A DNA stretch of 37,715 bases from Sphacelaria rigidula (lineage: Eukaryota), in NCBI GenBank assembly GCA_964200075.2, contig CAXNAA020000015.1:1-37715 (forward strand), read 5' to 3'. Shown one piece after another: positions 2,584-37,502 of this stretch. A program made the position numbers and the translations under genes. Numbering within the stretch: the first letter of the stretch is position 1; the number at the start of each line of letters is the position of its first letter. Under the pieces are notes generated by a model, which saw only the letters and a list, made by a program, of their open reading frames with translations, made no database searches and was not told the DNA's origin.

Positions 2584-2757
2584 GTCAAGCTCCAGACACA
2601 GGTGCGCCGGGTGGAGGCTGCGAGACAGGTCGATGCTAGACGCCGCGCAGTGAGAGCTGTTCAGTGTTCACAACGGAAAGCGCACATCCTAAATCAGGAG
2701 AAGAAACAGCGCGCGGTCGTCCGCATCCAAGCTGCTGCCAAGGGCAGGCGCGCGAGG
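2584..2757 (+). CDS. IQ-motif exon
   Basis: Acceptor caccacag|, donor AGG|GTAAGA, phase 0 at both ends. Joins as RNAA|VKLQTQVRR...VVRIQAAAKGRRAR. Confidence 0.8.
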
Positions 2758-4855: not shown

Positions 4856-4894
4856 CTATTGACAAAACTTGTGATCTATTGACAAAACTTGTGA
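4856..4894. repeat. Intronic tandem duplication, 20-nt period (CTATTGACAAAACTTGTGA x2)
   Basis: Exact 19-mers at 4856-4874 and 4876-4894. Confidence 0.9.
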
Positions 4895-5045
4895 CAGTTC
4901 ACACTCACTACGATCACGTACATTGTTAGTCATGGGCGCTACGTTTGTAGACCCTGGGGCAGAAATACCGTGTGTGGGTAACATCGCTCACCCCATCCAC
5001 CTTACTATCCCCCGGCATGCTTGAATCATTTTCATACTCCAACAG

Positions 5046-8000
5046 CGGGTGATGTTCGAGGGTGCGGGTCCAGTAGACCAAGAGTTGTCGGCCGCACACG
5101 AGTTTCAAATTCAACTTTTGGCCTCCATTGGTGCGCACGTCGTGGCGAATAGACAAAAGGAGGCCGAAAGTACAATGGGTGCAGTGATGTCCGCAGCTGG
5201 GGGTGATTGTGAACAATCACAGGAGCTCTCTGAGCAGGAAATCTGCCAGCAACGGGGGGAGGAGAGTGAAGCTGAATTACTTGGCGACATCATCTTGACA
5301 GAAAACGCGCCGCCGGAAGATGTAAGCTCTGAGATAGGGTCGGCGGGGGATGTTTTCTGCGATCTCGACGGAGACAGGGTGTTGTCAAGGATGAGTCTTC
5401 GTGTGGGATTTTGCAGCACGGACGACGGAGCAAGCGCACCGCTTGTCGCGATTTCTACAGTCCTGGACGACACTGCAGATAAGGAGGATGGATCTCTATC
5501 CCTTTCAGTTACCGAATCAGATGTAGGATACTGTGATGGCTTGACTCCACCTGTCGTGGAGAGCACCATACGAACGGAGGGTTTCAGCAGCAGCCCCGTC
5601 AAGGACGAAGGCCGGACTCCCGTCGAACAGTTTGCACCTGAAACCTCGGGCGAAACAGAGCAAGGGGGGGTCTCGCCGAAAAGTCTTCGGTTAGGTATCG
5701 ATGTTGTCACAGAAATCCCTACCCACAGTGGAGAAGAAAACGGTGATGCGCTTCCTGTTGCAAGGGCTCCCGAGGAAGCCAGAATATCGACAGAAGTAGA
5801 TTCTCGAGCTTCCGACGATGAGGATCTTGGCTGTGCGGCAATGCCGCTTCATCATGAAGAGGCAATAGGTGTTACTATATCTACACAACTCGAGTACGCG
5901 GGCGTGTCAGGGGATGCAACGGCGGACACAGGCGGGGTGGAACTCGTGGAAGACGACTCTGTGGACAGGTTGCAAGTGGATCCGTCGGTAGCAGCAGTAC
6001 AAGCCGAAAATCAAGGTTCCGTACCTTCCACTGCCGTGTCGACGTCTGATACCTTTGACGAGGTTGAAGGGAAGTGCCTGGTGTTATCCTCAATGAAGGT
6101 GGATGCTGAAAGCGCTGTGGGTGAAAAGAAAGAGGCGATGAATGCGGATGGGCGGGAGAACGTACGAACGCTCAATCAGAGATCTGCTCAAGATGCCGCC
6201 AGTGCGGCAGATGAGGAGCTCACGACTGCTGCTCCGGTCGAGACCACTACGACCGAGGATGAGGTAGAGGTGGATGTCACCGCATCCGTACACGAGCAGG
6301 CGGCTGGCACAGGGGTGGGCGATACGCTGTCGGCAGGAGAAGCAGACCTCTCGAACATGACGGACAGTACCACAGTGCCTCCCTCGAACCCTGACGGAGA
6401 TCAACAGGCATCGACAGCCGAGGCAATCGACGACGAAAGCGCTACCGGTCGTGTGAACAACCAGGATTCCGACGGTGCAGCCCGCGAAATAATTCTGACG
6501 CCGATCGCCGCAGGCGATAGCTCCATGGGTGCTGCGACACAGGCGACGACTGTTGACGTTCTAGAGAACGTTGAATCGCCGAACCGACAAGCTACTGACG
6601 ACGTCGCCAGTACGGTAGATCCGGAACTCACGACTACCGCTCCTATCAAAGCAGGCACTACTAGGGGTGAGGTGGAAGTGGACGCTGCCGTATCTGCACA
6701 CGAGCACGTGGCTGCCCCAGAGGTGGACGAGGTGCTGTTGACAGGCGCAGAGGCCAACGAATCCGCCGTGGCGGACATGGCCACAGCTCATCCGGCGAAC
6801 GTTGATGGACATGGCCTAGCGCCCGCGGCCGAGGCAGTGGCCGACGGAAGTGTTGCTAATCGCGTGGACGACCCAGACTCTGAGTGTATTGCTTCGAAAA
6901 GCTTGGATACAACGATCATCGTAGTGGATACCTCGATTGAAACTTCTACAGTGGTGACGGCTGTTGACGGGCAAGGAAACGTACGAACACCTGATGAGAA
7001 CAGTACTGACGATGTGAAGGGTGCGTTATATCCGGACTCTGCGACTACTGCTGCGCTCGAGGCCACCACTACTGTGGGCCAGGTGGAAGTGGACGTCGCC
7101 GCATTCGGACACGAGCAGATGGCTGTCGCAGATGCGCGTGATGTGGTATCAGCAGTCGCAGAGGCCGACGAATCCGCCGTGGCGGACATGAACGCAGCCT
7201 CCACCTTGGACGCAGCTGGAGGTCAACGAGCATCGGCGGCCGAGGCAGTGGCTGGCGGAAGTGATGCTGGTCGTGTGGACGACCCGGACTCTGAGGGTGC
7301 AGTCCGCGATATGAATGATAAACCGATCGCCATAGTGGATGGCCCCGTGGGTGCTTCGACAGAGGCGACGACTGTAGGTGTGCAGGGGGACGTAGGAATG
7401 CCCCATCAGCAAGCCACTGATGATGTCGCCAGCGTGATAGGTCCGGAGGTGATGACTACTGGTGTGCTCAAAGCCGCCGCGACCGATGGTGAGGTGGGGG
7501 TAGATGTCGTTGCATACGGGCACGAGCAAGTGTCTGTCGCAGATGTGCACGATGTGCTGTCGGCAGGCCCGGAGGCCGACCAATCCGCTCTGGCGGACAA
7601 GGCGGCGGAGTCTATCTCGGACGCTGCTGGAGATGGCCGAGAATCGGCGACCGAGCCAGTGGCCGACGAAAGTGTCGTTGCTCGTATGGACGACTCGGAC
7701 GCTGACGGTACTCTAGCAAGCCTTGATACACCTATCGCCGCAGTGGATTGGCCCGTGGGTGCTCCGATAGAGTCGATGGCTGCAGATACGCAGGAGGATG
7801 AACGAACGTCCGACCAGCAAGCTACTGATAATGTCGCTAGCTCGGCAGATCCAGAGTGCACGACCGCTGCTCCCCTCAAAGCCACCGCGAGCGGGAGTGA
7901 GTTGGAAGTGGACCTTGCCGCATCCGGGCACGAGCAGGTGGATTTCGCAATGGTGCGTGATATGTCCTCGGCAGGCGCACAGGCCCATGACTCCACCGTT

Positions 8001-11000
8001 GCCGAAATGACTACAGCTCCTCCCTCGAATGATTATGGAGATAGTCGGGCATGGGTGACCGGGGCAGCGGCTGACGGAAGAAGTGCTGGTCGTGTGTACG
8101 ACCCGCACTCTCAGGATGGAGTCCGTGAACTGATCGAACAGCCGGTCGCCGCTGTGGATAGTACCGTGTGTGCTTTGATGGAGACGATGACTGTTGACGA
8201 ACGAGAGAACGTTGGATCGCCTAACCCGCAAGTTACGGAAGTTGTAGCCAGGCCGGCAGATCCGGAGTCGACAGCTGCTGCTCTGGTCGAGGCCTCGGCG
8301 ACCGGGGGCGAGGAGGAAGTGGAAGCTGCTGAATCTAGACACAAGCAGGTGGCTGTCGCAGAGGGGCGCAGCGTGCTGTTGGTAGGTCCAGAGGCTGACA
8401 ACTTCGCTGTTGCGGGTATTACCATAGCTTCTCCCTCAAACGCTGATAGAGAAAGCCGGGCATGGGGGACCGAGGCAGTGGCCGACGGAGGTGCTGCTGG
8501 TCGTGTGGACGGCCCTGATCCTAAAGGTGCAGCCCAGAGATTGACGGAGCAGCCGAATACTGCGGTAGACAGGTCCATGAGTGCTTCGATTGGGGCGGCG
8601 ACTGTTTACTGGCAAGAGGATGTACGATCACTTCACCAGCAAGATACGGACGATGTGGCCAGTGCGGCAGATTCGGAGTCCAAGACTGCTGCTCCGATCG
8701 ATGCCGCCACGGCAGGCAGTGAGGTGGGAGTGGACGCCGCCGCATCCGGACACAAGGAGGCGGCTGCCGGAGAGCCCTGCGATGTGCTGTCGGTAGGCAC
8801 GGGGGCCGATGACTTGACAGTGGCGGATGTGACCACAGCTCCTCCCACGAACGCTGATGGAGATGGCCGGGCATCGACGGCGGCCGAGACAGTGACCGAT
8901 ATAAGAGTGGAAGATCCGGAGTCGACGGCTGCTGCTCTGGTCGAGGCCGCCGCACCCGAGGGTGAGGTGGAAGTGGACGTCGCCGCATCTAGACACGAGC
9001 AGGATGATGTCCCAGAGGGCGGCGATGTGCTGTCCACAAGACCAGACGCCGGTGATAACGCCGGGAGGGACACAATCATAGCTCCCCCCTCGAACGCTGA
9101 TGACCATCGTCGGGCGTCAACGGCCGAGGCAGTGGGCGACGTAAGTGCTACTGGTCATATGGACGACCGGGACTGTGAGGGTTCAGTCCGCGAACTGACC
9201 AAGCAGCCGACCGCCGTAGTGGGTAGTCTCGTGGGTGCTTCGACACATGCGACGACTGTTGAGGTGCAGCAGATCGTCGTATCTCCCAACCAACAAGCGA
9301 AGGGCGATCCGGTCAGTGTGGAAGATCCGGCGTCGTCGATTTCTGCTTGGTTCGGGGCCGCTGCAACGGGAGACAAGGTGGCAGCGGACGCCGTCGCATC
9401 CGGACACGAGCATGTGGCTGTCCAAGAGGTGCGCGATGTGTTGTCGGCAGCCACAGTGGCAGAAGACACGACCGCGGCGGACATAGCACTGGATCCGTCT
9501 TCAAACGCTAATGAAGATGGCCGGCTATCGACAGCCAATGCAGTAGTCGATCGAAGTACTACTGGTCGTGTAGACGACCCTGATTCTGAGGGTGCAGTCC
9601 GCGAACCGATCGAGCAGGCGATCTCCGCGGTGGATAGTCCCGTGTGTGCTTCGATGGAGGCGACGGCTGTTGACGGGCGAGAAAACGTCGAATTTTCGAA
9701 CCAGCAAGCCACGTATGATGTTCTCAGTGCCACAGGTCCGGAGTCGACGACTGTTGCTTCGGTCGAGGCCGCCGCGACCGGGGATGAGGTGGAAGTGGAC
9801 GCTGCCGCATCTGGACATGAGCAGGCACCTGTCGCAGTGGTGCGCAATGTGCTATCGGTAGAACCAGAGGACGATGACTCGACTGCGGCGGACATAACCG
9901 TAGCTCTTCCGTTGAAAGCTGACAAAGATGGCAAGGCGTCGGAGGCAGTGACCGACGAAGGTGTTGCAGGTCGTGTAGACGACTCGAACCCTGGGGGTGC
10001 AGCCCGCGAGCGGATCGAGCAGCTGATCACTGCGGTAGATAGTGGTGTGCGTGCTTCGATAAAAGGAACAACTGTTGAGGAGCAGGAGAACGTCGGGTCG
10101 CCTCACCAGCAAGCTATGGACGATGCGGTCAGTGCGGTAAACCAGGCGTCCATGACAGCAACTGCGGTCCAGGCCGCAGCGACCGGGGTCGAGGTGGAAG
10201 TGGACGCCGCCGTATCCAGACACGAGCAGGCGCCTGTGGCAGAGGCGTGCGATGTGCTGTCGGCAGGTGCCGAGGCCGATGACTCGACCGTGGCGGACAT
10301 GACCACGGCTCCTCTCCCGCGTATAGTTGGAGATGTGCGGGCGTTTGTGGCCGAGGCAGTAGCCGACATATGTGCTGCTGGTCGTGAGGACGACCCGAAC
10401 TCTAAGGTTGCAGCCCGCAAACTGGTCGAGCAGCCAATCGCGGCGATGGATAGTCCCTTGGCTGTTTCGATAGACGCTACGGCTGTCGAGGAGGAGGAGG
10501 ACGTGGGATCGCCTCACCAGCAAGCCAGGGACAATGTGGCCAGCGCGGCAAATCCGGATTCGACAACTGCTGCTCCAGTCGAGGTCGCCGCGATCGGAGG
10601 TGAGATGGAAGGGGACGTCGCTGCGCCTGGACACGAACAGGCGGCCGTGGCAGAGGTGCGCGATGTTGTGTCAGTAGAACCAACGACCAATGACTCGACC
10701 GTGACGGACATAGCCGCAGCTCTTCCGCCAAACACTGACGAAGATGGCCGGGCGTTGGTGACTGAGGCAGTGACCGACGGAGGTGCTGCTGGTCGTGTGG
10801 ACGACCCGGACTCTGAGGGCTCAGCCCATAAACTGTGTGAGCAGCTGGTCCCTGCTGTGGATAGTGCTGTGCATGCTTCGACAGAAGGAACAGCTGTTGA
10901 GGAGCAGGGGAGCGTCGAATCACCTCACCATCACGCTACGGACGATGCGACCAGTCCCGCAGGTCTGGAGTCGACGACTGCTGCTCCGGCCGAGGTCGCT

Positions 11001-29000: not shown

Positions 29001-32000
29001 GTGAGTAGTCCCGTGAATGTTTCGATGGAGTCGACGGCTGATGACGGGCAGGAGAACACAGAATTGGCCGACCAGCAAGCTACCGGTGACGAGGCCAGTG
29101 TGGCCAATCCGGAGCCGGCGAGCGCTGCTCCGTTTGAGGCGGCCGCGACCGGGGCCGAGGTGGAGGTGGACGCCGCGGTATCCGGACATGAGCAGACGGC
29201 TGTGGCAGAGGCGGACGATGCACGGGTATACGGCGCAGAGGTCGACGAATCCACCATGGCATACACGACGACAGCTCCTCCCACGAATGGTGACGAAGAT
29301 AACCCGGCGTCGGGGGCCGACGCAGTGGTTGAAGTAATTGCCACCGGTCGTGTGGAGGACCCGGATGCTGAGGGTGCAGCCCGCCAGCCGATCGAGCAGC
29401 CGATCGTCGCGGTGGGTAGCCCCGCGAGCGTTTCGATAGAGTCGACGGCTGTTGACGGGCAGGAGAGCGTAAGATCGACTGACCCGCAAGCTACCGGCGA
29501 TGAGTTCAGTGTTGCAGATCCGCAGTCGACGATCGCTGCCCCGGTCGAGGCGGCCGCGATCGGGGGCGAGGTGGATTCGGATGGCGCGATATCCGGACAG
29601 AAGCAAGTGACTCTGGCAGGGGCGTACGATATATTGCTAACACGCACGGAATTCATGAAATCCGCCATGTCGGTCACGACGACAGCTCCTCTCACGAACG
29701 CTGATGAAGATGGCCCAGCGCCGGTGGCCGACGCAGTTGTTGATGTAATTGCCACCGCTCGTGCGGACGACCTGGATGCTGAGGGTGCAACCCTCGAACC
29801 TATCGAGCAGTCGATCGTCGCGGTGGGTAGTCCCGCGGGTGTTTCGGTAGTGTCAACGGCTGCTGACGGGCAGGAGGGCACAGGATTGGCTGACCAGCAA
29901 GCAAACGGTGATGAGGCCAGTTTGGCCGATCCAGAGTCGACGATTGCTGCTGCGGTCGAGGTGGCCGCGGCCAGGGGCGAGGTGGAAGTGGATGCCGTGG
30001 TATCCGGACACGAGCAGGCGGCTGTGGAAGAGGCGGACGATATAGTATCGGCAGGTGTGGAGGTCGATGAATCCGTCATGGCGGACACGACGACAGCTCC
30101 TACCACGAACGGCGACGAAACTGATCAGGCATCGGGGGCCGAAGTAGTGGTTGATGTGATTGCCACTGGTCGTGCGGACGACCCGGACGCTGAGGATACA
30201 GCCCACGAACCAACCGAGCAGCCGGTCGCCGCGGTGGGTAGTCCCGCGGGTGTTTCGGAAGCGTCGATGGCTGTTGACGGGCAAGAGAACACAGGATCGG
30301 CTGACCAGCAAGCTACCGATGACGAGGCCAATGTGACCAATCCGGCGTCGATGATCGCTGCTCCGGTCGAGGCGGCCGACGAGGTGGAAGTAGACGCCGC
30401 GGAATCTGGACACGAGCGGGCGGCCGTGGCAGAGGCGGAAGATGCACGAATGACCGGCGGAGAGGTCGACAAATTCACCATGGCGGACACGACGACAGCT
30501 CCTCACACGAACGGTGACGAAAATGCTCCGCCGTCGGGGGCCGAGGCAGTGGCAGGTATAATCGCTTTTGGTCGTGTGAACGACCCCGACTACAAGATTG
30601 AAGCCTACGAACCGATCGAACAGCCGATCATCACGGTAGGTAGTCCCGTATGTGCTTCTTTAAACGCGATGGCTGTTGAAGGGCAAGAGAACATCGGATC
30701 GGCTGACCAAGCTGCTGGCGATGCGACCACCGCCGTCGATCTAGAGTCTATGACTGCTGCTTCAGTCGAGGTCGCTGTGGCTAAGGGTGACGTGGAGGTG
30801 TGCGCCGCCGCACCAATACACCAGCAGGCGGCTGTCGTGGAGGTAGGCGATGTATTGTCGGCAGGCATAGTGATCGACAAATTTCCTGTGGTGCACATCA
30901 CTACGGCCTCTTCTCCGAAAGCTAATGAAGATAACCCAGCATCGCCGGCCGAGGCAGTAGTCCATGTAAGAGCCGCTGGTCGTGTGGACAACCTGGACGC
31001 TGAGGGTGAAGCTCTTGAATTGATTGAGCAGCCGATCGTCGCGGTGGATAATCCCGCGGGTGCTTTGATTGACGCGACGGCTGTTAGCGAGCACGAGAAC
31101 ATCAAACCGTGTCAGCAGCAGCCTACTGGCGATGAGGCCAGTGCCACAGTTCCGACTTCGACGACTGCTGCTTGGGTTGAGGCCGCCGCCACGGGGGGTG
31201 GGGTGAGGGTGGGCGCCGCCGCATCAGCACAAGAGCAGGCGGCTGTGGCAGAGGTGGACGACGTATTGTCAGCAGGCGCAGAGGTTGATGAATTCGCCAT
31301 CGCGGACACGACGACAGCTCCTCTCACAAACGCCAATGAAGATGACCCGGTACCGGCGGCCGAGGCAGTGGCCGTTTCAACTTCTTCTAGTGGGGTGGAC
31401 GACCCAGGCCGAGAGAGTGCAGCCCGCGAACCGATAGAGCAGTTGACCGCCGCGGTGGATAGTTCTGCGGGTGTTTCAACACAGGCAACGGTTGTTGACG
31501 ACCAAGAGAGCATAGAATCGCCTGATCAGCAAGCTACAGGCCATGCGGCCCGTGTAGCCGATCCGGAGTCGACAACTGCTGCCCCGGCCGAGGCGGCCAC
31601 GACCGGGGGCGAGGTGGTGGTGGACGTCGCGGTATCCGAACCCAAGCAGACGGTTGCAGTAGAGGTGGGAGATGTGCCAACGGTAGGCCCAGAGATAGAC
31701 GAATCCGCCATGGCGGACACGACGACAGCTGCTCCCACAGACCCTGATGAAGATGGTTCAGCGTCGGGGGCCGAGGGGGTGGTCGATGTAATTGCTACTG
31801 GTCGTGTGGACGACCCTGACGCTGAGAATGCAGCCTGCGAACCGATCGAGCAGCCGATCGTCGCGATGGATAGTCCCGTGAGTGTTTCGATGGAAGCGAC
31901 GGCTGATAATGGGCAAGAGAATATACAATCGGCTGACCAGCAAGCCACTGGAGATGTGGCCAGTGTGCCCAATCCAGAGTCGACGACTTCTGCTAAGGTA

Positions 32001-35000
32001 GAACCCGCCGCATTAGGACGCAAGCAGGCGACTGTCGCGGACACCGGCGATGTTCTGTCGGCAGGCATAGAGGTAGACGAAACCTCCGTGGTGCATATCA
32101 CCGCGGGCCCCTCCCCGAACGCCGATGAAGCTTGGCTAGCGTCTAGGGTCGAGACAGTGGCCGACGAACGTGCTGCAGATCGTGTGGACGACCCGGACGC
32201 TGAGAGTGTAACCTGCGAACCGATCAAGCAGCCGATCGTCGCGATGGATAGTCCCGTGAGGTTTTCGATGGAAGCGACGGCTGTTGGCTCGCAGGAGAAT
32301 GTACAATCGGCTAACCAGCAAGCTATTGGAGATGTGGTCAGGGCGCCCGACCCGGAGTCGACGACTTCTGCTCAGGTAGAGCCCGCCGCATTAGGACGCA
32401 AGCAGGCGACTGTCGTGGACGCCAACGATGTGCTGTCGGTAGGCGTAGAGGTAGACGAAACCTCCGTGGTGCATATCACCGCGGCCCCCTCCTCGAATGC
32501 CGATGAAGATGGCCTGGCGTGTGGGGCCAAGACAGGGGCCGACCAACGTGCTGTAGGTCGTGCGGACGACCCGGACGCTGAGGGTGCAGCCTGCGGACCG
32601 ATCGAGCAGCCGATCGCCACGATGGATAGTCCCGCACGTGCTTTCATAGAGACGATGACTATTGACGGGCAGGATAACATCGAATCGCGTCAGCAGCAAA
32701 CTGCTGGCGATGTGGTCAGTGCGGGCGATCAGGAGGCCATTACTGCTGCTTCCATCGAGGCCGCCGCGACCGGGGGTGAGGTAGAGGTGGGCGCCGCCCC
32801 ATCAGGACGCGAGCAGGCGGCTAATGCAGAGGCGGATGATGTGCTGTTGGCAGGTGCAGAGATCGACGAATCCGTCGTGGTGAAAATCACCACGGCCCCT
32901 TCCCCGAAAGCCGATGAAGATGGCCGGGTATCGCCGGCCAAGATAGTGGCCGACCAACGTACTGCTGACCGTGTGGAAGACCGGGACGCTGAGGGTGCAG
33001 CCCGCGCACCGATCGAGCAGCCAATCGCCGCGGTGGATAGTCCCGCGGGTGCTTTGACAGACGCGACGGCCGTTGACGGACAAGAGCATGTCGGGTCGTG
33101 TCAGCAGCAAGGTTCCGGCGATGTGGCCAGAGTGGCAGATCCGGAGTCGCCGGCCGCTGCTCCGGTCGAGGCCGCCGCGACCGGGGACCAGGTGGAAGTG
33201 GACGCCGCGGTATCCAGACACGAGCAGGCGGTTGTGGCAGAGGTGGAAGATGCGATGACAGCGGGCGCAAAAAATGACGAATCTGCCGTTGCGGACACGG
33301 CGACAGCTCCTCCCACGAACGCTGATGAAGATGAGCCGGCGTCCGCGGCTGAGGCAGCGGTCGATGTAAGCTCTTCTGATCATATGAACGACCCGGACGC
33401 TAAGGGTGGAGCCCGCGGACTGATCGAGCAGCCGGTCGCTGTAGCGGATAGTCCCGGGGGTGCTTCAGTAGACCCGACAGCTGTTGACGGGCAAGAGGAC
33501 GTAGGATCGGTTGACCAGAACGCTACCGGTGATGAGGCCAGTGCGACAGATCCGAAGTCGACGATTTCTGCTTCGATCGAGGCGGCTGCGACTAAGGGTA
33601 AGGTGGAGGTGGGTGACGCGGTATCTAGACACGAGCAGGCGGCTCTGACAGAGATGAAAGGTGCGCTAACGGCAGGCGCAGAGTTCGACGAATCCGACAT
33701 GGTGGACATCATCACGGTTCCCTCGACGACCGTTAAGGAAGATGACCTGGTGTCGGCGGCCAATGCTGTGGTCGATATAGGGGCTACTGGTCGTGTGGGC
33801 GACCTGGATTCTGAGGATGCCGCCCCTGAACTGATCGAGCAGCCGATCGCCGCGGTGGACCGTTCTGTGGGTGCTTTGAAAGAGGCGGCGAATGTTGACG
33901 GGCAAGAGAACGTCGGATCGCGTCAGCAGCAAACTGGTGATGAGGCCAGTGTGGCCGATCCGGAGTTGACGGCTGCTGCTCCGGTCGAGGTCGCCGCGAC
34001 CAAGGGTGATGTTGACACAGGGGTTGCCGAACCCGGACACGAGCAGGCGGCTGTCGCAGAGGCAGACGATGCACTGTCGCCAGGGGCGGAGGTCGACGAA
34101 TCTGTCGTGGCAGACACGACCACAGCTTCTTCCCCGAACGCTGATAGATATGGCCAGGTGTCGGCGGCCGAGACAATGGCTGGCGAAAGTGCTGATCGTC
34201 GTGTGCACGTCTCGAACTCGGAGGGTGCATCCCTTAGAAGGATCGAGCAGCCGATCGCCGCAGTTGATAGTCACATGGGTACCTCGATAGAGGCGACTGC
34301 TATAGACGGGGAAGAGAACGTCAGATCTCTCAACCACCGAGCTATTGCCAATGTCTTCAGTAAAACAGGTCCCGAGTCGGCAACCGTTTCTCCGAGCGGG
34401 GCCACCGCGACTGAGGGCAAGGTGGAAGTAGGAGCTGCCGCAGCTGGACGCGAGCAGGCGGTTGTCGCAGAGGCGGGCGATGTACTGTCTGCGAGCGCAG
34501 AGGTTGACGAATTTTCCATGGCCAACATGATCACGGCCTCAACTTCGAGCGCTGATGGGGATGGGCGGGCGTCAGCAGCCGAGGCAGCGGACGACGCAAG
34601 CACTACTGGTCGTGTGGACGACCCGGATGCTGGCGATCGAGCCCGCGAACTGATCGACCAGCCGATCGCCGCGGTGGATAGTCCCGTGAGTGCTTCGATA
34701 GGGGCGACGGCTGTCAAGGGGCAAGAAAGCATCGGATCGCCTCATTATCAAGCTACAGGCGATGTCGACCGTACGACCGATCCGGAGTCCAGGACTGCTG
34801 CTCCGGTCGAGGTCGTGGCGACCGGGGATGTGGTGGAATTGGACACCGCCGCATCTGAACACGAACAGGTGGCTATCGAAGAGGTGCTCGATGCATTGCC
34901 GGTAGGCGCTGAGACCGATGGCTCGATTGTGGTTGACACGATGAGAGCTTCTCTCTCGAGGGCTGATAAAGATGGCCGGGTATCGCCGGCCGAGGCAATG

Positions 35001-36431
35001 GCCGACGAAAGTACTGCTGATCGTGGGGACGAGGCGAATTCTGAGGTAGCAGCCCACGAACTGATCGAGAAGCCGGTCGCCGCCGTGGATAGTCCTGTGG
35101 GTGGTTCGGTACAGGCGACGGCTGTAGAGAAACAAGAGCTCGTCGGATCGCCTCAACAGCAAGCGTTTAGGGTTAGGGTCCGCGAACCGACCGACCAGTC
35201 GATCGCTGCGGTGGATAGTCCCGTGGGTATTTCGAAGGAAGCGACGGTTGCTGTTGACGAGAAAGAGAGCGTAAGATCGTCTAACCAGCAAGCCACTGAT
35301 GATGTGGCCAGTGCGACCGACCCGGAGTCCGCGACAGCTGCTCCGGTAGAAACCACCGCGACCGAGGGTGAGATGGATGCAGGAGCTGCTGCAGCTGGGC
35401 ACGAGCAGGTGGTTGTTGCCGAGGCGGACGATATGCCGTTGGCAGGTGCGGAGGTCGATGCATCGACTGTGGCGGAGGTGATTACGGTCGCTTTCTCGAA
35501 CACTGACGGAGATAGGTGGGCATCGACGGCCGAGGCAGTGGCCGATGGCTGTGCTGCTGGCCGTGTCGGTGAGCCGGACGCTGACGGTCGACCCCTTGAA
35601 CTGATCGAGCAGCCGATCTTCGCTATGGATAATCCCGTGGGTGCTTCGATAGAGGCGACGGCTACTCAAGTGGAGGTCGCCGTGACTATGATTGGGGTGA
35701 AAGAGGACCTCAGTGGATCTATCCATGAGCGCGCGCCCGTTGCAGAGGTGCGTGGCGTACTGGACTTTGATCTGAAGGTCGAAGCCCCCGCCGTGATGGG
35801 CGATGTATCAGCTTCTCCTTCAAAAGTCGATCAACGTTGGCCGACGGAGACAGCCGACGCAGCTGGTGACGAAAGTGCTGCCAGTCGTGTTGACGAGCTG
35901 GGCTGCCAGAGTTCAGAAAAAAAGCCACCTAAGCTGCCGATCGTCACAGTTCATAGCGTTGAGCCTTCGCCTGGTACGGCGGCAGCCGATGGGGAGGAGA
36001 ATTCACAGATCGCTGGTGCCGCAGATGTAAACGTCGGAACTGCTGCTCTGATCGAGGTCGCTGTGACTCGGCAAGAGGTAGACGTAGGCGTCTCCGTGTC
36101 TTCAGGCCAGCAAGTGACTATTGCAGAGGTGCATGATACTGCCGTCGATACTTTGCTGGGTTCAACGGAAGATGAGGAGAAGAAGGCACAAGCGTCCGAC
36201 CGGGGAACTACTGGCTATATCACTCGTGTTGTTGATCCGAAGCCTGACAACGCTGCCCCAGTCGAGGCCGCCGCACCCGAGGTTGAGGTCGAAGCGCCTA
36301 TCGCTGCATCCGGAATCGAGCAGGTAGCTATTGCAGAGGTGCGTAACGTGTTGTCGGCAGGTACAAAAACCGGAGAGTCCGTCGTTGTGGACGCGTCTCC
36401 CCCGAATGTTGATGAAAATTGCCAGGACTAA
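5046..36431 (+). CDS. Giant exon encoding ~10,460 aa: acidic linker (~370 aa) followed by a 137-aa tandem repeat region rich in A/D/E/V/T/S/G/P
   Basis: Acceptor ttttcatactccaacag|CGG in phase 0 with the 3752 donor. No stop for 31.4 kb. The TAA at 36429-36431 is supplied by an inserted element. Confidence 0.88.
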   Translation, partial: RVMFEGAGPVDQELSAAHEFQIQLLASIGAHVVANRQKEAESTMGAVMSAAGGDCEQSQELSEQEICQQRGEESEAELLGDIILTENAPPEDVSSEIGSAGDVFCDLDGDRVLSRMSLRVGFCSTDDGASAPLVAISTVLDDTADKEDGSLSLSVTESDVGYCDGLTPPVVESTIRTEGFSSSPVKDEGRTPVEQFAPETSGETEQGGVSPKSLRLGIDVVTEIPTHSGEENGDALPVARAPEEARISTEVDSRASDDEDLGCAAMPLHHEEAIGVTISTQLEYAGVSGDATADTGGVELVEDDSVDRLQVDPSVAAVQAENQGSVPSTAVSTSDTFDEVEGKCLVLSSMKVDAESAVGEKKEAMNADGRENVRTLNQRSAQDAASAADEELTTAAPVETTTTEDEVEVDVTASVHEQAAGTGVGDTLSAGEADLSNMTDSTTVPPSNPDGDQQASTAEAIDDESATGRVNNQDSDGAAREIILTPIAAGDSSMGAATQATTVDVLENVESPNRQATDDVASTVDPELTTTAPIKAGTTRGEVEVDAAVSAHEHVAAPEVDEVLLTGAEANESAVADMATAHPANVDGHGLAPAAEAVADGSVANRVDDPDSECIASKSLDTTIIVVDTSIETSTVVTAVDGQGNVRTPDENSTDDVKGALYPDSATTAALEATTTVGQVEVDVAAFGHEQMAVADARDVVSAVAEADESAVADMNAASTLDAAGGQRASAAEAVAGGSDAGRVDDPDSEGAVRDMNDKPIAIVDGPVGASTEATTVGVQGDVGMPHQQATDDVASVIGPEVMTTGVLKAAATDGEVGVDVVAYGHEQVSVADVHDVLSAGPEADQSALADKAAESISDAAGDGRESATEPVADESVVARMDDSDADGTLASLDTPIAAVDWPVGAPIESMAADTQEDERTSDQQATDNVASSADPECTTAAPLKATASGSELEVDLAASGHEQVDFAMVRDMSSAGAQAHDSTVAEMTTAPPSNDYGDSRAWVTGAAADGRSAGRVYDPHSQDGVRELIEQPVAAVDSTVCALMETMTVDERENVGSPNPQVTEVVARPADPESTAAALVEASATGGEEEVEAAESRHKQVAVAEGRSVLLVGPEADNFAVAGITIASPSNADRESRAWGTEAVADGGAAGRVDGPDPKGAAQRLTEQPNTAVDRSMSASIGAATVYWQEDVRSLHQQDTDDVASAADSESKTAAPIDAATAGSEVGVDAAASGHKEAAAGEPCDVLSVGTGADDLTVADVTTAPPTNADGDGRASTAAETVTDIRVEDPESTAAALVEAAAPEGEVEVDVAASRHEQDDVPEGGDVLSTRPDAGDNAGRDTIIAPPSNADDHRRASTAEAVGDVSATGHMDDRDCEGSVRELTKQPTAVVGSLVGASTHATTVEVQQIVVSPNQQAKGDPVSVEDPASSISAWFGAAATGDKVAADAVASGHEHVAVQEVRDVLSAATVAEDTTAADIALDPSSNANEDGRLSTANAVVDRSTTGRVDDPDSEGAVREPIEQAISAVDSPVCASMEATAVDGRENVEFSNQQATYDVLSATGPESTTVASVEAAATGDEVEVDAAASGHEQAPVAVVRNVLSVEPEDDDSTAADITVALPLKADKDGKASEAVTDEGVAGRVDDSNPGGAARERIEQLITAVDSGVRASIKGTTVEEQENVGSPHQQAMDDAVSAVNQASMTATAVQAAATGVEVEVDAAVSRHEQAPVAEACDVLSAGAEADDSTVADMTTAPLPRIVGDVRAFVAEAVADICAAGREDDPNSKVAARKLVEQPIAAMDSPLAVSIDATAVEEEEDVGSPHQQARDNVASAANPDSTTAAPVEVAAIGGEMEGDVAAPGHEQAAVAEVRDVVSVEPTTNDSTVTDIAAALPPNTDEDGRALVTEAVTDGGAAGRVDDPDSEGSAHKLCEQLVPAVDSAVHASTEGTAVEEQGSVESPHHHATDDATSPAGLESTTAAPAEVAAIGGKVAEDAAASRHEDVAVAEVRDVLSAEPEGDDLTAADVTVALLSNADEYSRAVAAEATTDGGATGRVDDPDSEGEARELLDQAIVAGSSAVGASIEALEGQENVGSPQQQAKDGVVSAVEPESVSASPVEATVADGEEEVDAAPSRHEQVTETDARDVLLVGAAADDLTMTDTTTALPSNADEGSRASVVDAAADGSAAGREDDPDSKGAARKLVEQPIATADSPVRASTEVTAADGQENIGSLHQQATDDLANAADSESTNAALIKAAATVVEVKRDTGGSGQEQVAVAEVGDVLLAGAVTDDLTVADMATAPTLSADEADRELAAGAVADVRPAGDVDDPEAEGVVHELIKGPIAAVDSAVRASIGAMTIDERENVACPNQQAENDVASTADPESTTAAPVEVAAAAGEVEMDGAASEHEQVAVTVVGGVLSAGAEADDSSVMDMTTAPPTSTGGDGKASTSDAVADEVAGRRMDDTECESKAHELIEQPINVVDGPVGASNEVMTVNGKEIVETPHQHATEDVANTADLEATTASPVEAHAAWGEVGVNVVESGHEQAAVVEVEGTLLAGAEIDERAITDMTTALPLNADGNGQASAAEVVVDGHARGGVVDPNVSGAPCKPTEPAIAAVGSPVSALVESRAVGELENIGSRHLQAAGDVASAADLESKTAVPVESTATGGEVEVGSAVSRHEQAIVAEACDVLLARDEAKDSIVADMTTTPPSNAVGDGPESAAKAVADGSATGRLDDQDSEGAAACKPIEKPIAAMRSSVGASIEATAADGQGNIGSPEQQATGDVASAADPRPTTAAPVEAAATGGEVRVENTVSGHEQAPVAEADNALSAGAEVDEFTVADMITAPRSSADEGSRAPAAETVVDVRAAGRVDDLGSEGGARELIEKSVVVVDSPVGASIEVDVQENLGSSVHQATDDVVGAADPGSMTAAQVEATAIGGEVEGRAAASNHEQSAVAEADEVLLTGAEVGESAVADSLTAPLTNADKDDPAPAAKTVADDRSAGRVDDPDADGRVLKLIEQPMDAVDSPLSAFTDATTVDGQELVGSRYQQAAGDVVSAGDLESTTAAAVKAAATGGEKEADAAVFGHEQATVAEVKDAPTTGAKEDEPAIAAPTTALPTNANEDEPASATEAVTDVSSTGCVYNLDLEGAAREPIEQPIPVVDSPVDASIDTAAVDGSDKIGLADQEATGDGASAKDLQSTTAAPVEASVTEGEVEVGGAVPGHEQATVAEADDILSAGAEVDESAVVHITAATSPNSDGDGRALPAEAVTDERAAGCVDNANAERAALDLIEQPIAAVDSLVSASIDTAAVDGQENVGSSDHQATGDEANAADSESTIAAPIESTATGGEVEIDAAVSGHEQAVVAEVDKLAMADTTTGPPTSADEDALVSGADSVVDEIATGRVGDPDAKDATLERIEQPTAAVDSPVRASIELTAVDGQGNIESADPQSTGDVAGVVDPESTTAASVEASEAKSEVEVGGAFSGHEQVAAAEANDALSAGAGIDESAVVHNTTAPSPNADGDDRASPAETVAEERASDRVSGLSSECSAFELIEQPIVTVDSPVGGLIDTAAVDRQQNVGSPDYQATGDEVNVVDPDSTTAVPVEAAATGGEVEMDAAASAHEQVAVAEADDILSADAKIDESAMAATAPPTNADSDDPASGAEAVVDVGSIGGVDDLDVKGAAREPVEQPIAAVDSPVSVSIESTAIDRQEDFEAPDPRATSDVAGAADPERTTAAPVEAAATGGEVEMDAVASAHEQVAVAEADDILSAGAKVDEFAMANATTAPPTNADSDDPASRAEAVVDVIATGRVDPDAEGAAFEVIEQPIAAVDCPVGGSTESTAVGGQDNIESADQQATGDVASVVDPESTTAAPVKAGTAEVEVEVDVDGAVSGHEQAAVAEADDALLEGAEVDESAVVHITMAPSPNADEDGRASPVETVLDQCASDRAEDPESKGAPLELIERNAVVDSPVGASTDPAAVNGQENVGSRQQRNTGDEISAADPTSTTAAWVEATATGGEVELGGVVSEHEQTAVAEADGAFSADIDVDESAVHIIPKADEDDRASSAETVADQRAANRVDDSDANGAALELIEQPMIAVDSPVGALTDATTVDGQEDLGSLEQQTTGDEVRAPDPESMTAAAVEGTATRGEVEVGASASAHEQAACSRISTREANEILLTGAEADESAMVDTTTAPPTNADEDDPAPAAEVVVDITSSGGVDDLDAKGAAREPIKPPIIVVDSPVGTSIDTVAVDGQEDVGLPYQQATGDVVSVADPESTTAARVEATATEGGAKVGAAASALQQPTIVEADDMLSVGVKVDESAMADTTTAPPTKADGDGPAPAAEAVVDVSDTDGVDDSDSESAAYEPIEQPIVVMESLVSIPVESTAVDGQENAGSADQQANGNEARMDDPESTTAGPVEAAATGGEVEVGAAVSGYGQTAVAEAHDILSGDAEVDESVMTDTTTAPPTNAHEDDPASGTKELVDESATGRGDDANAEGAAHKHFEQPFAAVDSPVDVSVNATALDKRENVSSPDQQAAGDATRVADPTSTTAAPVEVVATRGEVKMGATASVHEQVAVADVEDAWMVGAAVGESVMADTTTAPVTKADEDDPASAAEAVVDASANGRVDDPDANGAALKSIEQAITVVDSPASVSITSIAVDERENVGSPVQQATGDDASVADPESTAAILVEAGATGGEVEMDAAASAHEQVTVAEADDALLIGAEVDESALANKTTAPPASADEDGPAPAAEAVVSEIATDRVDDPDAEDADRQPIEQPIAAVGSPVSVSIESTAVGGQENARSVDPQATGDEASVLDPESTVAAPVEAAATGSKVEMGAAAVSGHEQLTVEETDDMLWEDAEVDISAMADTTTAPPMNADEDDPASAAQAEVDKLAIGRVDDPDAEGAAREPIEQPISAVGIPMSVLLIDSRFVDGQEEVGTADQQATGCVARVLDPDATIAAMVDTTATGGEMEVGAAASTREQAAVAAVDDILSAGADVVESIMADTTKAPPTNGDENGPASAAEAVVDKSTIGRVDNPDADDVTREPIEQSIAAVGSPVSVSIESTAVDGQEIAGSADPPATGDKASVLDPELTTSGPVEAAATGDEVEYVDAVSVQEQVTVAEADDTLLTGAEVDESAMADTTTGPPPSGDKNHPASGANAAVDEAATGRVDDLHAEGAAREPIEQSIAAVGSPAGVPIESTAVDGQDNVESADQQAAGDEASMADPKSMIAAPVEVGAIGGEVESVDTVSVQEQVTVAEVDDTLLIGAEVDESAVAITTTGPPPSGDENHPASGADTVVDEAATGRVDDLHAEGAAREPVEPSIAAVGSTAGVPIESTAVDGQDNVGSANRQATGDEASMADPESMIAAPFEAGATGGEVESADAVSVHEQVTVAEVDDTLLTGAAVHESAIAITTTGPPASGDEDDPASGADTVVDVAATGRVDDPDAEGAARERIGQSIAAVGSPAGVSIESTAVDGQDNVGSADRQATGDEASMANPESTIAAPVEAGATGGEVEVDAAVPGHEQMTAAYTSDALSRDAEVDEPAMADTTTAALTSADEDGPAPVADAVIDVIATDRVDDPDAEGAAREPVEQSITAVDSLLDVSIESTAVDAGLADQQATGDVASMADSKSTIAAPVEAAATGGEVEANAAVSGNAHVTVAIADDTLLTCAEVDEFALVDTMTAPPTNGVQDGPATAAEVVVDVIVTRCVDDLDAQSAASVPIEQAIAAVGSPVSVSIESTAVDGQEEVGSADQQGTGDEASVAAPESMTAAAVDATATRGAVEVGAAASAHEQATVAKADDVVSAGAEVDESVMADTTTASPLNADEDGPTSAAEAVVGVIATGRVDDPGAEGAALEAIEQPIAAVGSYVSVMIESTAVDGQEEVQPPGQQATDEARVADPESTTSATVDATVTGGEMEVSAAASAHEQVAVADVDDILSAGAAVDESAMAVTTKAPATNSEEGGPASGVKAVVDVIATGRVGDPDAEDAVRELVKQSIAAVGSPVSVSVESTAVDGQENAESADQQTTGDEASVADPESTTACPVEAAAIGGEVESIGAVSVYEQVIMAEADDTLSTVAAADGSAIAVTTTAPPTNSDKTNPASGADVVVDLATTSRVDDPDAEGAAREPIEQSIAAVGSPGGVSIESTAVDGQDNVGSADQQTTGDEASVTNPESMVAAPVEAGATGGDVDMEAAVSGHEQVTVAKTDDTLLTRAAVDESAMADTTIAPRTNADEDGPAPAAEAVVDVIATGRLDDLDAEGAARQPIEQPMTVDDSPMSVSIGSTAVDGQAGVGSADQRATASVAAPESMTAAPIDVTATGGEMEVAAAASAHEQATVAEADDIASAGAEVDESVMADTTTAPPTNGDEDGPASAAEAVVDELATGRVDDPDAESSAREPTEQPIAAVGSPVSVSIESTAIDGREGVGSADQQASGDEASVTDPESTVAATVDATSRWGEMESDAAVSGHKKTTAAEANDILSAGAAVDESAMADTTIAPPINGDEENPATGAKAVVDVSTTGHTDDPDAEDADGEPIEQPIVAVGSLGSVLIESIAVDRRENAGSTDQQTTGDEASVVDPQSTIAAPLEAAATGGKVESVAAVSRHEQVAVAEADDTLSTGAGADEFALADTTTAPPTNADEDSPVPGAEAVVDKLATSRVDDPDAEGAAREPIGQSIAPVGSPVSVSMESTAVDGQENAGSADRQAAGDEVSVADPESRTAVTVDATTTGGDVEVSAAASAHEQAAVAEADDIVSAGAAADESAMADTTTCPPTNGNEDGPALAAEAVVDASATGLVDDPDAEDAACELIEQPITEVDSPAGVSIESTAADGQDNVGSADQQTTGDEASVADPESMIAAPVGAAATGGEVEVNAAVPGHEQVTVAEAHDTLSGGAEVDESTIADTTTAPHANFDEDGPAPAAEAVVDTIVTHCVDDPDAEGADLEAIEDPFAGVDSPVRVSIESTAVDGRDNAGSADENATGDETSVADPESVAAASVKAAATGSEVGMGAASISERGQISVVQADDKLLTGAEVDVSALADMTTAPDTNADEDGPSPETETVVDVIATGRVDDSDAEGAAIEVIEQPTAVDSPMSVSIESTTVDRQEELESPDQRATSDVADAADPESTTAAPVGAAAIGGEVEMDAAASAHEQVAVAEADDILSVGAKVDEFAMADTTVAPPTNADSDDPASRIVAVVNVGSIDLADDSDAEDAAREAIQQPVTAVESRAGPAPAANAVVDVIVTGRVDDPGAEDAAREPLEHLIAAVDSRVSVSVESAAIAGQENIVSADQQAAGDESCVADPQSTIAAPFQASMTGGEVEVDAAVSAHEQAAATEGQDERVVNAKVDESAMEDTTIAPLTNADEDGPAPAADAGIDAIATDRLDSPDAEGEGRESTEQPIAAVGSPADVSIESTVVDGQDNAKVADPRESGYDVSVAGPESTIAALVEVAANRGKVEVDAAVFGHEQAAAAEVEGERVIDAEVDESTMAGTTTAPPTNADEYDPAPAGDAVNDEIATCRMEDPDAEGAACQRIAQPIAAVSRLVSVSIDTAVVDEQENVESADQQATGDEASVADPESTTAATVDATATGGEVKSDAAASAHEQAVVAEGDDILSADAEVVESGMADMTTAPPLNADDDGPASGADAVVDVIATGRVDDPDAEGAAREPIEQPIAAVGSFASVSTESTAVDGQENVASTDQQATGDEASLADPQSMTAGRVEAAATGGEVDSDGAVSEHKEVTVTGADDILLTGAEVDESAMADTTTAPLTNADEDGPAPAAEVVIDVIATGRVHDLDAEGEDRETIKHSLIVVGSPVNVSMESTAADGQENAGSADQQATGEEVGVADPESTIAATVEAAATGGEVEVNVAVSGHEQTTVAGAEYAWMIGPEVDECGMAGTTTAPPTNGDETDPVPATDAVVDSIATSRVDCPSAEGAGSKPIEQRIAAVSSPVNVSMESTADDGQENTELADQQATGDEASVANPEPASAAPFEAAATGAEVEVDAAVSGHEQTAVAEADDARVYGAEVDESTMAYTTTAPPTNGDEDNPASGADAVVEVIATGRVEDPDAEGAARQPIEQPIVAVGSPASVSIESTAVDGQESVRSTDPQATGDEFSVADPQSTIAAPVEAAAIGGEVDSDGAISGQKQVTLAGAYDILLTRTEFMKSAMSVTTTAPLTNADEDGPAPVADAVVDVIATARADDLDAEGATLEPIEQSIVAVGSPAGVSVVSTAADGQEGTGLADQQANGDEASLADPESTIAAAVEVAAARGEVEVDAVVSGHEQAAVEEADDIVSAGVEVDESVMADTTTAPTTNGDETDQASGAEVVVDVIATGRADDPDAEDTAHEPTEQPVAAVGSPAGVSEASMAVDGQENTGSADQQATDDEANVTNPASMIAAPVEAADEVEVDAAESGHERAAVAEAEDARMTGGEVDKFTMADTTTAPHTNGDENAPPSGAEAVAGIIAFGRVNDPDYKIEAYEPIEQPIITVGSPVCASLNAMAVEGQENIGSADQAAGDATTAVDLESMTAASVEVAVAKGDVEVCAAAPIHQQAAVVEVGDVLSAGIVIDKFPVVHITTASSPKANEDNPASPAEAVVHVRAAGRVDNLDAEGEALELIEQPIVAVDNPAGALIDATAVSEHENIKPCQQQPTGDEASATVPTSTTAAWVEAAATGGGVRVGAAASAQEQAAVAEVDDVLSAGAEVDEFAIADTTTAPLTNANEDDPVPAAEAVAVSTSSSGVDDPGRESAAREPIEQLTAAVDSSAGVSTQATVVDDQESIESPDQQATGHAARVADPESTTAAPAEAATTGGEVVVDVAVSEPKQTVAVEVGDVPTVGPEIDESAMADTTTAAPTDPDEDGSASGAEGVVDVIATGRVDDPDAENAACEPIEQPIVAMDSPVSVSMEATADNGQENIQSADQQATGDVASVPNPESTTSAKVEPAALGRKQATVADTGDVLSAGIEVDETSVVHITAGPSPNADEAWLASRVETVADERAADRVDDPDAESVTCEPIKQPIVAMDSPVRFSMEATAVGSQENVQSANQQAIGDVVRAPDPESTTSAQVEPAALGRKQATVVDANDVLSVGVEVDETSVVHITAAPSSNADEDGLACGAKTGADQRAVGRADDPDAEGAACGPIEQPIATMDSPARAFIETMTIDGQDNIESRQQQTAGDVVSAGDQEAITAASIEAAATGGEVEVGAAPSGREQAANAEADDVLLAGAEIDESVVVKITTAPSPKADEDGRVSPAKIVADQRTADRVEDRDAEGAARAPIEQPIAAVDSPAGALTDATAVDGQEHVGSCQQQGSGDVARVADPESPAAAPVEAAATGDQVEVDAAVSRHEQAVVAEVEDAMTAGAKNDESAVADTATAPPTNADEDEPASAAEAAVDVSSSDHMNDPDAKGGARGLIEQPVAVADSPGGASVDPTAVDGQEDVGSVDQNATGDEASATDPKSTISASIEAAATKGKVEVGDAVSRHEQAALTEMKGALTAGAEFDESDMVDIITVPSTTVKEDDLVSAANAVVDIGATGRVGDLDSEDAAPELIEQPIAAVDRSVGALKEAANVDGQENVGSRQQQTGDEASVADPELTAAAPVEVAATKGDVDTGVAEPGHEQAAVAEADDALSPGAEVDESVVADTTTASSPNADRYGQVSAAETMAGESADRRVHVSNSEGASLRRIEQPIAAVDSHMGTSIEATAIDGEENVRSLNHRAIANVFSKTGPESATVSPSGATATEGKVEVGAAAAGREQAVVAEAGDVLSASAEVDEFSMANMITASTSSADGDGRASAAEAADDASTTGRVDDPDAGDRARELIDQPIAAVDSPVSASIGATAVKGQESIGSPHYQATGDVDRTTDPESRTAAPVEVVATGDVVELDTAASEHEQVAIEEVLDALPVGAETDGSIVVDTMRASLSRADKDGRVSPAEAMADESTADRGDEANSEVAAHELIEKPVAAVDSPVGGSVQATAVEKQELVGSPQQQAFRVRVREPTDQSIAAVDSPVGISKEATVAVDEKESVRSSNQQATDDVASATDPESATAAPVETTATEGEMDAGAAAAGHEQVVVAEADDMPLAGAEVDASTVAEVITVAFSNTDGDRWASTAEAVADGCAAGRVGEPDADGRPLELIEQPIFAMDNPVGASIEATATQVEVAVTMIGVKEDLSGSIHERAPVAEVRGVLDFDLKVEAPAVMGDVSASPSKVDQRWPTETADAAGDESAASRVDELGCQSSEKKPPKLPIVTVHSVEPSPGTAAADGEENSQIAGAADVNVGTAALIEVAVTRQEVDVGVSVSSGQQVTIAEVHDTAVDTLLGSTEDEEKKAQASDRGTTGYITRVVDPKPDNAAPVEAAAPEVEVEAPIAASGIEQVAIAEVRNVLSAGTKTGESVVVDASPPNVDENCQD
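6150..36425 (+). repeat. Coding tandem array, ~73 diverged copies of a 411-bp (137-codon) unit
   Basis: Homologous EQ(P)IAAV codons at 28161, 28572, 28983 and 29394 are exactly 411 nt apart. Manual count of the GRVDDPD-type marker gives ~73 units plus partials. Terminal units are degenerate and the boundaries are approximate. Confidence 0.93.
35166..35178 (+). repeat. Short telomere-like tract TTTAGGGTTAGGG at a rearrangement junction in the array
   Basis: Directly visible and not seen at this position in other repeat units. Confidence 0.6.
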
Positions 36432-36675
36432 TGCCGAGATAACCCCCCCACAAAAAGTGTACCGGAGACCATCCGACAAACCGGCTGCGATCCCACTATT
36501 GGGCTCGTTTGCAGCGATTTCGCCCACGTGAGGGGCGTATAGCAGCCTGAAATCAGCTATAATGCCCAAATAAGCCGCGTCGTGCAGCGCGAAACCAGCT
36601 CTAACGGCATTTTTTATCATCGCCTCCGTGCACGTTTTTGGCCAGTTCGGGGGGGGGCTATCTCGGCAGCAGTCA
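36426..36675. mobile_element. MITE-like non-autonomous DNA transposon (~250 bp) inserted in coding sequence
   Basis: Left end GACTAATGCCGAGATAACCCCCCC (36426-36449) is the reverse complement of right end GGGGGGGCTATCTCGGCAGCAGTC (36651-36674) at 21/24 positions. CAG flanks both sides (36423-36425, 36676-36678). The empty site reads in frame as NCQAETVVNE. Confidence 0.85.
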
Positions 36676-36678
36676 CAG

Positions 36679-37387: not shown

Positions 37388-37502
37388 GTGAGCGCAAGTG
37401 AAACCTTGATATTGACGTCGTAGTCACCGCAGACACTATCGAGGTTGTTGGCATTTCGTCACACACAGCCGGAGGTGGCGATAAAACAATACGCTTTTGT
37501 AG

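Follow-up and report, generated by a model that had tools for sequence, protein, structure and literature searches.

An uninterrupted 31.4-kb coding stretch of acidic 411-nt repeats in Sphacelaria rigidula, most likely a single giant exon

The DNA considered here is a stretch of 37,715 nt from Sphacelaria rigidula (assembly GCA_964200075.2, contig CAXNAA020000015.1, positions 1 to 37,715 of the forward strand), referred to below as the window. It contains a giant open reading frame (ORF) composed mainly of diverged tandem copies of a 411-nt unit that encodes 137 acidic residues, preceded by a series of small candidate exons with IQ-like motifs. To judge by the sequence, the interval 5046-36431 is a real uninterrupted protein-coding stretch and most likely one exon of about 31.3-31.4 kb. 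Its parts are as follows.

5046..36431, + strand: uninterrupted coding stretch, 10,461 codons plus TAA, from stop counts per frame
5046..6209, + strand: non-repeat acidic N-terminal part of the exon, 388 residues, net charge -54
6210..36425, + strand: tandem array of 137-residue (411-nt) acidic units, 66 full units plus partial or rearranged ones, all in frame
36429..36431, + strand: TAA closing the frame, read directly in the sequence

Under the standard code, the stop-to-stop ORF spans 5025..36431 (+) and comprises 10,468 codons with a single stop, the terminal TAA at 36429-36431. Over 5046-36431, the other two forward frames contain 439 and 636 stops and the minus-strand frames 72-271, and about 355 stops are expected from base composition alone (log10 P of no stop = -157). 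G+C content is higher in the ORF (0.59-0.63) than in the 5' flank (∼0.51-0.52), GC and AT skew are steadily positive in the ORF, and purines (G+A) make up 56.7% of the giant exon. On the minus strand the array is overlapped by ORFs as long as 625 codons, for example at 18689-20566 (-), which a gene finder might call. These antisense ORFs were rejected as genes, as their frames hold 72-271 stops and mirror the GNN-rich sense frame.

Tandem Repeats Finder detects the 411-nt period over 8914-35164, while an iterative profile built from the translated ORF yields 78 matches from nt 6060 to 36425, 66 of which are full 137-residue units; altogether the array holds about 73 diverged copies. Full units are spaced by 2-3 residues, and the sole unmatched stretch within the array measures 17 residues. 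Units truncated or internally duplicated, always in frame, account for the partial matches (8670-8912, 26514-27041, 31974-32720 and 35166-36425). A sequence-only reading of this DNA had described a continuous ORF whose repeat register shows no intron-like interruption, and both statements are borne out by the single terminal stop of frame +1 and by the contiguity of the units. Compared in pairs, the 66 full units reach a nucleotide identity of 0.901 at most (median 0.694), and the units nearest the consensus sit in the centre of the array, which most likely arose, to judge from its sequence, by ancient tandem amplification of the 411-nt unit. The most alike neighbouring units are u35-u37 (20373-21599, 0.86-0.90 nucleotide identity), a likeness that points to a local triplication or conversion more recent than the rest of this old array.

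The array is coding sequence, not a satellite. Neutral decay was simulated by mutating the consensus unit with the substitution spectrum observed in the array (200 runs per spectrum, 73 units). Under the all-site spectrum the simulated arrays carry 94.7 ± 10.1 stops (lowest count in the 200 runs, 67), and under the third-position spectrum 108.1 ± 10.6 (lowest count, 82), against none observed. In a frame-blind MAFFT nucleotide alignment of the 66 units, 340 of 340 gap runs are multiples of three (lengths 3, 6, 9, 12, 15 and 30). The stop deficit and the multiple-of-three gaps indicate that frame and length are under strong selection. Residue identity is weakly constrained: across 2,145 unit pairs, the median Nei-Gojobori ratio of nonsynonymous to synonymous divergence (dN/dS) is 0.69 (5-95% range 0.49-0.98; median dS 0.505), and the unit alignment contains no invariant column and none conserved at 90% or more. 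Diversity at codon positions 1, 2 and 3 (0.273, 0.294 and 0.329) is even along the unit, so that no segment behaves like an intron, and a test for intron-like segments marked by stops, frameshifts or lost homology found none across the array.

Genomic contigs support the array as assembled. A run search listed five sequencing runs that contain the sequence, from two studies and none recorded as RNA; three small runs under the same species label, presumed to be RNA, contain next to none of its words, a result that bears on expression in neither direction. Logan contigs of four of the five runs (three of one study and one of the other) were compared with window positions 1-20000; they are genomic, since they run unbroken through putative introns (for example, X1 2265-7294). 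The X1 contigs 2265-7294, 7270-10816 and 11203-14531 are collinear with the window without a difference, and X1 and X3 show none in any of the listed pieces. The X1 word depth is 61-66 in most array bins compared with 66-78 in single-copy flanks, with a few higher bins (95.5, 114.2 and 154.3). The longest exact repeat in the exon is 61 nt, 97.4% of the exon's 31-mers are unique, and those of 20001-36431 are 95.9% unique within the exon. Flat single-copy depth over 1-20000 together with 97% unique 31-mers argues against misassembly, and collapse or over-expansion of the array is unlikely. The contigs of X4, from the second study, represent a strain ∼1% diverged, whose only exon indel within 1-20000 leaves the frame intact:

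16721..16722, + strand: 6-nt in-frame insertion in X4 (one more Glu-Val), inside an EVEVEV run

A 4-nt deletion of the same strain, at 3820, falls in a putative intron. The listed exon single-nucleotide polymorphisms (SNPs; n = 13) comprise 4 synonymous and 9 nonsynonymous changes and no stop-making one. Two DNA joints, 15976>18852 and 19998>15889, were considered as a deletion variant and rejected: they coincide with in-register paralogous BLAST alignments of 19999-20265 and arise because the compared stretch was cut at 20000.

The product of the stretch would be a protein of 10,461 residues, ∼1,045 kDa and an isoelectric point of ∼4.05, with 2,100 Asp+Glu against 447 Lys+Arg, for a net charge of -1,653 and a mean of -21.7 per unit. 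Its composition is dominated by A (19.0%), V (11.6%), D (10.4%) and E (9.6%), followed by S (8.1%), G (7.7%), T (7.7%) and P (5.5%); Lys accounts for 1.4% and K+R for 4.3%, and Cys and the aromatic residues for at most 0.5% each. No segment of transmembrane strength is present, in that no 19-residue hydrophobic window exceeds 1.6. Semi-conserved short motifs (DPES, HEQ, GRVDDPD, IEQP and VDGQ) have only 19-47 exact occurrences each. AlphaFold2 predicts no secondary structure either for one unit (66 aligned units, predicted local distance difference test score, pLDDT, 47.6) or for three units (39 aligned triples, pLDDT 32.3).

Homology searches place this protein in no known family. Pfam assigns no family to 822 and 409 residues of the array, Rfam gives no match, and the 66-unit profile, run against 1.84 billion representative proteins, returns one match at E <= 0.001 (E = 5.7e-4), an unrelated low-complexity protein. 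Word-based protein searches with the non-repeat N-terminus (proteins of 680-2,000 residues) and with residues 1-1500 (proteins of 5,491-17,474 residues) return no match, and the 388-residue N-terminal part has no family and no look-alike. The ESM Atlas gives nothing usable for the array unit (best score 0.77) or the N-terminal part, and the three-unit protein has no relative in prokaryote genome, viral and metagenome contig collections. From the composition and the structure models, we infer that the product is a giant intrinsically disordered polyanion in which length, charge and a few short motifs would outweigh exact sequence; it might serve as a spacer, a tether, a bristle or a cation buffer of low affinity.

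The surroundings of the stretch suggest that it belongs to a larger, spliced gene. The candidate features on either side, and at the two ends of the giant exon, are listed below.

530..766, + strand: exon candidate with IQ motifs (PF00612, three stretches)
1231..1320, + strand: exon candidate of 90 nt with an IQ-like basic helix, from the GT-AG chain
1727..1877, + strand: exon candidate of 151 nt, whose junction with the preceding exon makes a 'LRIQNLTRIRAAK' motif
2602..2757, + strand: exon candidate of 156 nt (174 nt if it starts at 2584), IQ-like, from the GT-AG chain
3231..3752, + strand: exon candidate of 522 nt with a weak IQ match, ending in phase 0; a direct join to 5046 is in frame
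5044..5045, + strand: AG of a candidate 3' splice site (atactccaacag|CGGGTG), which would start the exon at 5046 in phase 0
5052..5054, + strand: in-frame ATG, a possible independent start under a rival gene model
36324..36340, + strand: putative phase-0 donor-like sites CAG|GTAGCT (36323|36324) and GAG|GTGCGT (36338|36339)
36574..37401, + strand: 275-codon open frame, likewise acidic and T/V-rich, probably the next exon

The rebuilt upstream chain of GT-AG exons (237, 90, 151, 156 and 522 nt) is free of stops and frame-compatible, with introns of 464, 406, 724 and 473 nt between its members and then a 1,293-nt intron from 3752 to 5046; across its five junctions it stays open over 485 codons into the giant exon. 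The sequence-only reading had spoken of a small-exon gene with neighbouring exons of 32-522 nt. The 522-nt exon is reproduced in the rebuilt chain, whose listed candidates otherwise go down to 90 nt, while the 32-nt exon was not recovered. The frame 459-791 matches PF00612 (IQ) in three stretches at 24.7 bits, above the gathering cut-off of 20.3 (E = 1.6e-5), and the product of the upstream exons contains a run of ∼11 basic IQ-like helices at roughly 23-25-residue spacing, most of them below the Pfam threshold. Joining 1320 to 1727 yields an IQ-like motif, a point in favour of the upstream exon model, and under this model the N-terminus of the product falls outside the window.

Immediately upstream of the giant ORF, 4161-4850 is the densest cluster of X4 differences (690 nt with 13 listed SNPs, compared with 6 in 2416-4160), a density suggestive of an intron or spacer without constraint. 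About 150 nt upstream of the giant exon, 19 nt are duplicated exactly in tandem (4856-4894, two copies, 20 nt from start to start).

At the 3' end, the TAA at 36429-36431 falls inside unit-homologous sequence (profile positions 1-65) and may not be the end of the exon. From the donors 36323|36324 and 36338|36339, a stop-free join can be made to the AG before 36646 or the one before 36670, and with either donor the exon would be internal, at 31,278 or 31,293 nt. The 275-codon frame, with which both AGs are phase-compatible, contains no ATG in roughly its first 140 codons and is probably the next exon. A phase-1 donor, CAG|GTACAA at 36357, was rejected as phase-incompatible with the AGs before 36646 and 36670. 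G runs of about 9-10 nt occur in the 3' flank at 36649-36657, just before the candidate acceptor at 36670, and at 37671-37680; they are potential sequencing-error hotspots and could affect the downstream frame.

The putative intron 1878-2601 contains a short element that is hyper-abundant in all four genomic runs (2040-2078, more weakly to about 2323). The mean X1 word depth of bin 2002-2668 is ∼508,000, compared with ∼66 nearby, and thousands of different contigs start or end at 2038-2040 and at 2078. With its many short palindromes, the element has the look of a dispersed repeat of very high copy number, perhaps resembling a miniature inverted-repeat transposable element. Positions 2042-2055, the first 14 nt of the element, match window positions 1-14 exactly in reverse complement, which indicates that the window begins inside an inverted copy.

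Splice-like sites are frequent within the array itself. AG|GTR occurs 152 times in the giant exon, in phase 0 at all recurrent unit registers, the most frequent being unit column 54 (44/66 units), followed by columns 60 (17/66), 99 (15/66) and 129 (13/66). The sequence-only reading had stated that each unit carries recurrent CAG|GTG or GAG|GTG sites in the same register, from which exitron-type splicing could produce length isoforms. Recurrence in phase 0 is confirmed for 62 of the 66 units, which carry at least one such AG|GTR; it does not extend to every unit, the columns vary (13-44 of 66), and exitron splicing from these sites is unsupported by the sequence. What recurs as GAG|GTG and CAG|GT is the Glu-Val or Gln-Val codon pair of 'GEVEVD' and 'HEQV', and since the peptide itself has Glu/Gln-Val at these places, the recurrence needs no splicing explanation. 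The extended donor AGGTRAGT is absent from the exon, GTAAGT occurs twice, and YYYYNCAG acceptor-like sites number 8 in 31.4 kb.

Several other explanations of the stretch have to be weighed against a selected giant exon. It is scarcely credible that the array is a dead gene or a 411-bp satellite without coding function, its open frame being due to composition or to very recent amplification. Weak amino-acid constraint, blank homologue searches and antisense ORFs of up to 625 codons, which show that composition alone lengthens ORFs here, would all agree with it, but 0 stops are present where 95-108 are expected (simulated minimum 67), all 340 gap runs are multiples of three and every other frame is broken 72-636 times. 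The units are also old, and at a maximum pairwise identity of 0.90 their open frame was not inherited from a recent copy. It is very unlikely that the array length is an assembly artefact, whether an over-expanded or a collapsed repeat. Tandem arrays are classic sites of misassembly, and the read comparison covered only 1-20000; against this, depth over 5046-20000 is flat and single-copy, apart from a few higher bins, in three runs of one study and one of another, contigs of 3-5 kb are collinear with the window, no exact internal repeat exceeds 61 nt and, for 20001-36431, 95.9% of the 31-mers occur once in the exon. The alternative that carries appreciable, though clearly minority, weight is that the giant ORF constitutes a separate gene, with a single- or first-exon coding sequence from the ATG at 5052 to the TAA at 36431, with the IQ gene ending at a TGA near 4178-4180. 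The in-frame ATG lies 6 nt inside the proposed exon, an ORF at 3965-4180 can be entered in frame from the AG before 3965 and ends in a stop, the SNP-dense stretch 4161-4850 is what an unconstrained spacer would show, and the frame closes with a TAA inside sequence that is still unit-homologous. The SNP-dense stretch, however, suits an intron equally well, and the phase-0 AG at 5044-5045 gives an open join with exon 3231-3752, which itself ends in phase 0. The two parts also share a strand and a similar G+C content at third codon positions (0.55 in exon 3231-3752 versus 0.51-0.60), and the downstream 275-codon ORF, without an early ATG and in frame from two donors, suggests that the transcript continues.

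It is improbable that length isoforms are produced from the giant exon, by exitrons or by alternative in-phase donors used with a downstream acceptor, so that whole units are removed. The 152 AG|GTR sites, phase 0 throughout at their fixed registers and present in 62 of 66 units, offer material for such events; the putative real donors of the gene are weakly defined beyond GT(A/G), so that interior sites are not clearly worse, and the candidate terminal donors 36323|4 and 36338|9, in the last partial unit, are of the same Gln-Val/Glu-Val codon-pair kind. The coded peptide (GEVEVD, HEQV) nevertheless accounts for the sites, AGGTRAGT is missing and GTAAGT found only twice, the purine-rich exon has only 8 YYYYNCAG, and the DNA joints 15976>18852 and 19998>15889 are consistent with paralogous alignments of the sequence that follows the cut at 20000. 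The most far-reaching version of the sequence argument would combine the largest internal coding exon described in a spliced eukaryotic gene (∼31.3 kb, 5046 to 36323/36338) with a lineage-restricted, one-megadalton disordered polyanionic tail on an IQ-rod protein, the length of the tail being tuned in whole-unit steps via different donors and a single downstream acceptor; taken as a whole, this combination is quite improbable.

A giant exon kept open by selection, encoding a disordered polyanion that is probably the tail of the IQ-exon protein, is the reading that we consider likely as a whole. A number of observations weigh against it. Amino-acid constraint is weak (dN/dS 0.69, the three codon positions being almost equally diverse), and the 137-residue unit is an orphan in protein searches, orphan giant ORFs being sometimes artefacts. 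The charge-hydropathy position is borderline and nominally on the folded side (H = 0.475 versus a boundary of 0.470). The IQ match of exon 3231-3752 reaches 13.2 bits, below the cut-off of 20.3, and PF00612 has no match in the upstream frames 1211-1336, 1584-1895, 2482-2802 and 3965-4180. The divergence of X4 is higher in the exon (108/9,837 nt, 1.10%, six contigs wholly inside the exon) than upstream of 5046 (at least 27 differences in 4,584 covered nt, 0.59%), and 9 of the 13 listed exon SNPs are nonsynonymous. Finally, the low-depth run X5 has three 1-nt indels in the exon, at 8279, 8410 and 9083, each in one contig at a depth of about 3.3-3.5 and flagged as a possible error.

The giant exon probably arose by ancient tandem amplification of the 411-nt unit, followed by selection against nonsense and frameshift mutations. 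The acidic array would then probably form the tail of a protein with ∼11 basic, IQ-like helices for light-chain binding, encoded by the small exons upstream, giving an architecture of a light-chain-coated rod plus a megadalton acidic tail. A 31-kb exon might be tolerated by virtue of its short flanking introns (about 200-1,300 nt): where splice sites are paired across short introns (intron definition), exon length is not limited. In this account, transcription, both exon boundaries, the linkage to the IQ exons, disorder and function are all inferred.

If transcribed as read, the exon is ∼200 times the usual size among short introns, and the case, if true, bears on the limits of exon length under intron-definition versus exon-definition splicing. 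It would also be a protein whose residues change nearly neutrally (dN/dS 0.69, no invariant column) under a strictly maintained frame, length and charge. Such drift within a kept frame is the expected signature of a functional disordered polymer, here on a megadalton scale and with 66 internal replicates. As an orphan, the product would be overlooked or broken up by annotation pipelines and homology searches; if the stretch is transcribed as read, the product is a candidate giant cytoskeletal tether or cation buffer.

The human and Drosophila record exons are shorter. The largest human internal exon is given as MUC16 exon 3, at >21,000 nt, followed by the largest TTN exon at >17,000 nt, and exons of MUC4, MUC12, MUC17 and MUC5B exceed 10,000 nt (PMC3467050); the longest Drosophila exon is reported as 27.7 kb (PMC3563967, citing Peng et al. 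2009). The sequence-only reading had ranked the present exon among the larger coding exons described. At 31.4 kb it does exceed the MUC16, TTN and Drosophila records, while its single-exon status comes from sequence statistics only and a larger gene, tex1, has been described. Phrase-based literature searches, which are not proof of absence, found no spliced-gene exon above 31 kb. Long internal exons are described as enriched in tandem repeats and disordered regions (PMC12457776; bioRxiv 10.1101/2022.04.03.486857).

The closest parallels in architecture are the variable-number tandem-repeat exons of mucins, in which one very large internal tandem-repeat exon likewise encodes a non-globular product (PMC3467050; PMC13345508). 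Unlike mucins, the protein described here is strongly acidic (20% D+E, net charge -1,653), and its units are long (137 residues) and old (69% median identity) rather than those of a young variable-number repeat. Its proline, threonine and serine (PTS) content of 21.3% (S 8.1, T 7.7, P 5.5) is not that of a PTS-rich mucin, and A, V, D and E dominate instead. No sequence similarity to mucins was found, and the exon is about 10 kb longer than MUC16 exon 3. Titin also combines a giant exon with a many-exon gene, and part of the protein is repetitive, Glu/Val-rich and unstructured. Its PEVK segment acts as a spring, and its largest exon encodes folded Ig/Fn3 domains; in contrast, no fold is predicted here, the composition (Lys 1.4%, Pro 5.5%) is not that of PEVK, and there is no homology. 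The IQ-array proteins (myosin necks and ASPM-type IQ runs) resemble the run of ∼11 IQ-like helices in the upstream exons, one stretch of which scores above the Pfam cut-off, whereas the window contains no motor, CH or other defining domain and most of the motifs are below threshold. We know of no giant acidic tail in the myosin or ASPM-type IQ families.

The fungal gene tex1 is one continuous ORF. This nonribosomal peptide synthetase gene, given as ∼62.8 kb, is a larger eukaryotic gene than the present one, so that 31 kb is not an upper limit for eukaryotic genes (PMC11610996). Unlike the predicted disordered repeat described here, tex1 encodes modular, folded enzyme domains. The 27.7-kb Drosophila exon and the intronless spidroin genes (AcSp1) are record-size single exons for repetitive structural proteins as well (PMC3563967); the present stretch is longer (31.4 kb), acidic rather than Gly/Ala/Ser silk-like, and apparently part of a spliced gene. 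Giant repeat exons are thus already known as a kind, and the Sphacelaria exon is no new kind of genetic element: it is an unusually long member with large, ancient units and no known family.

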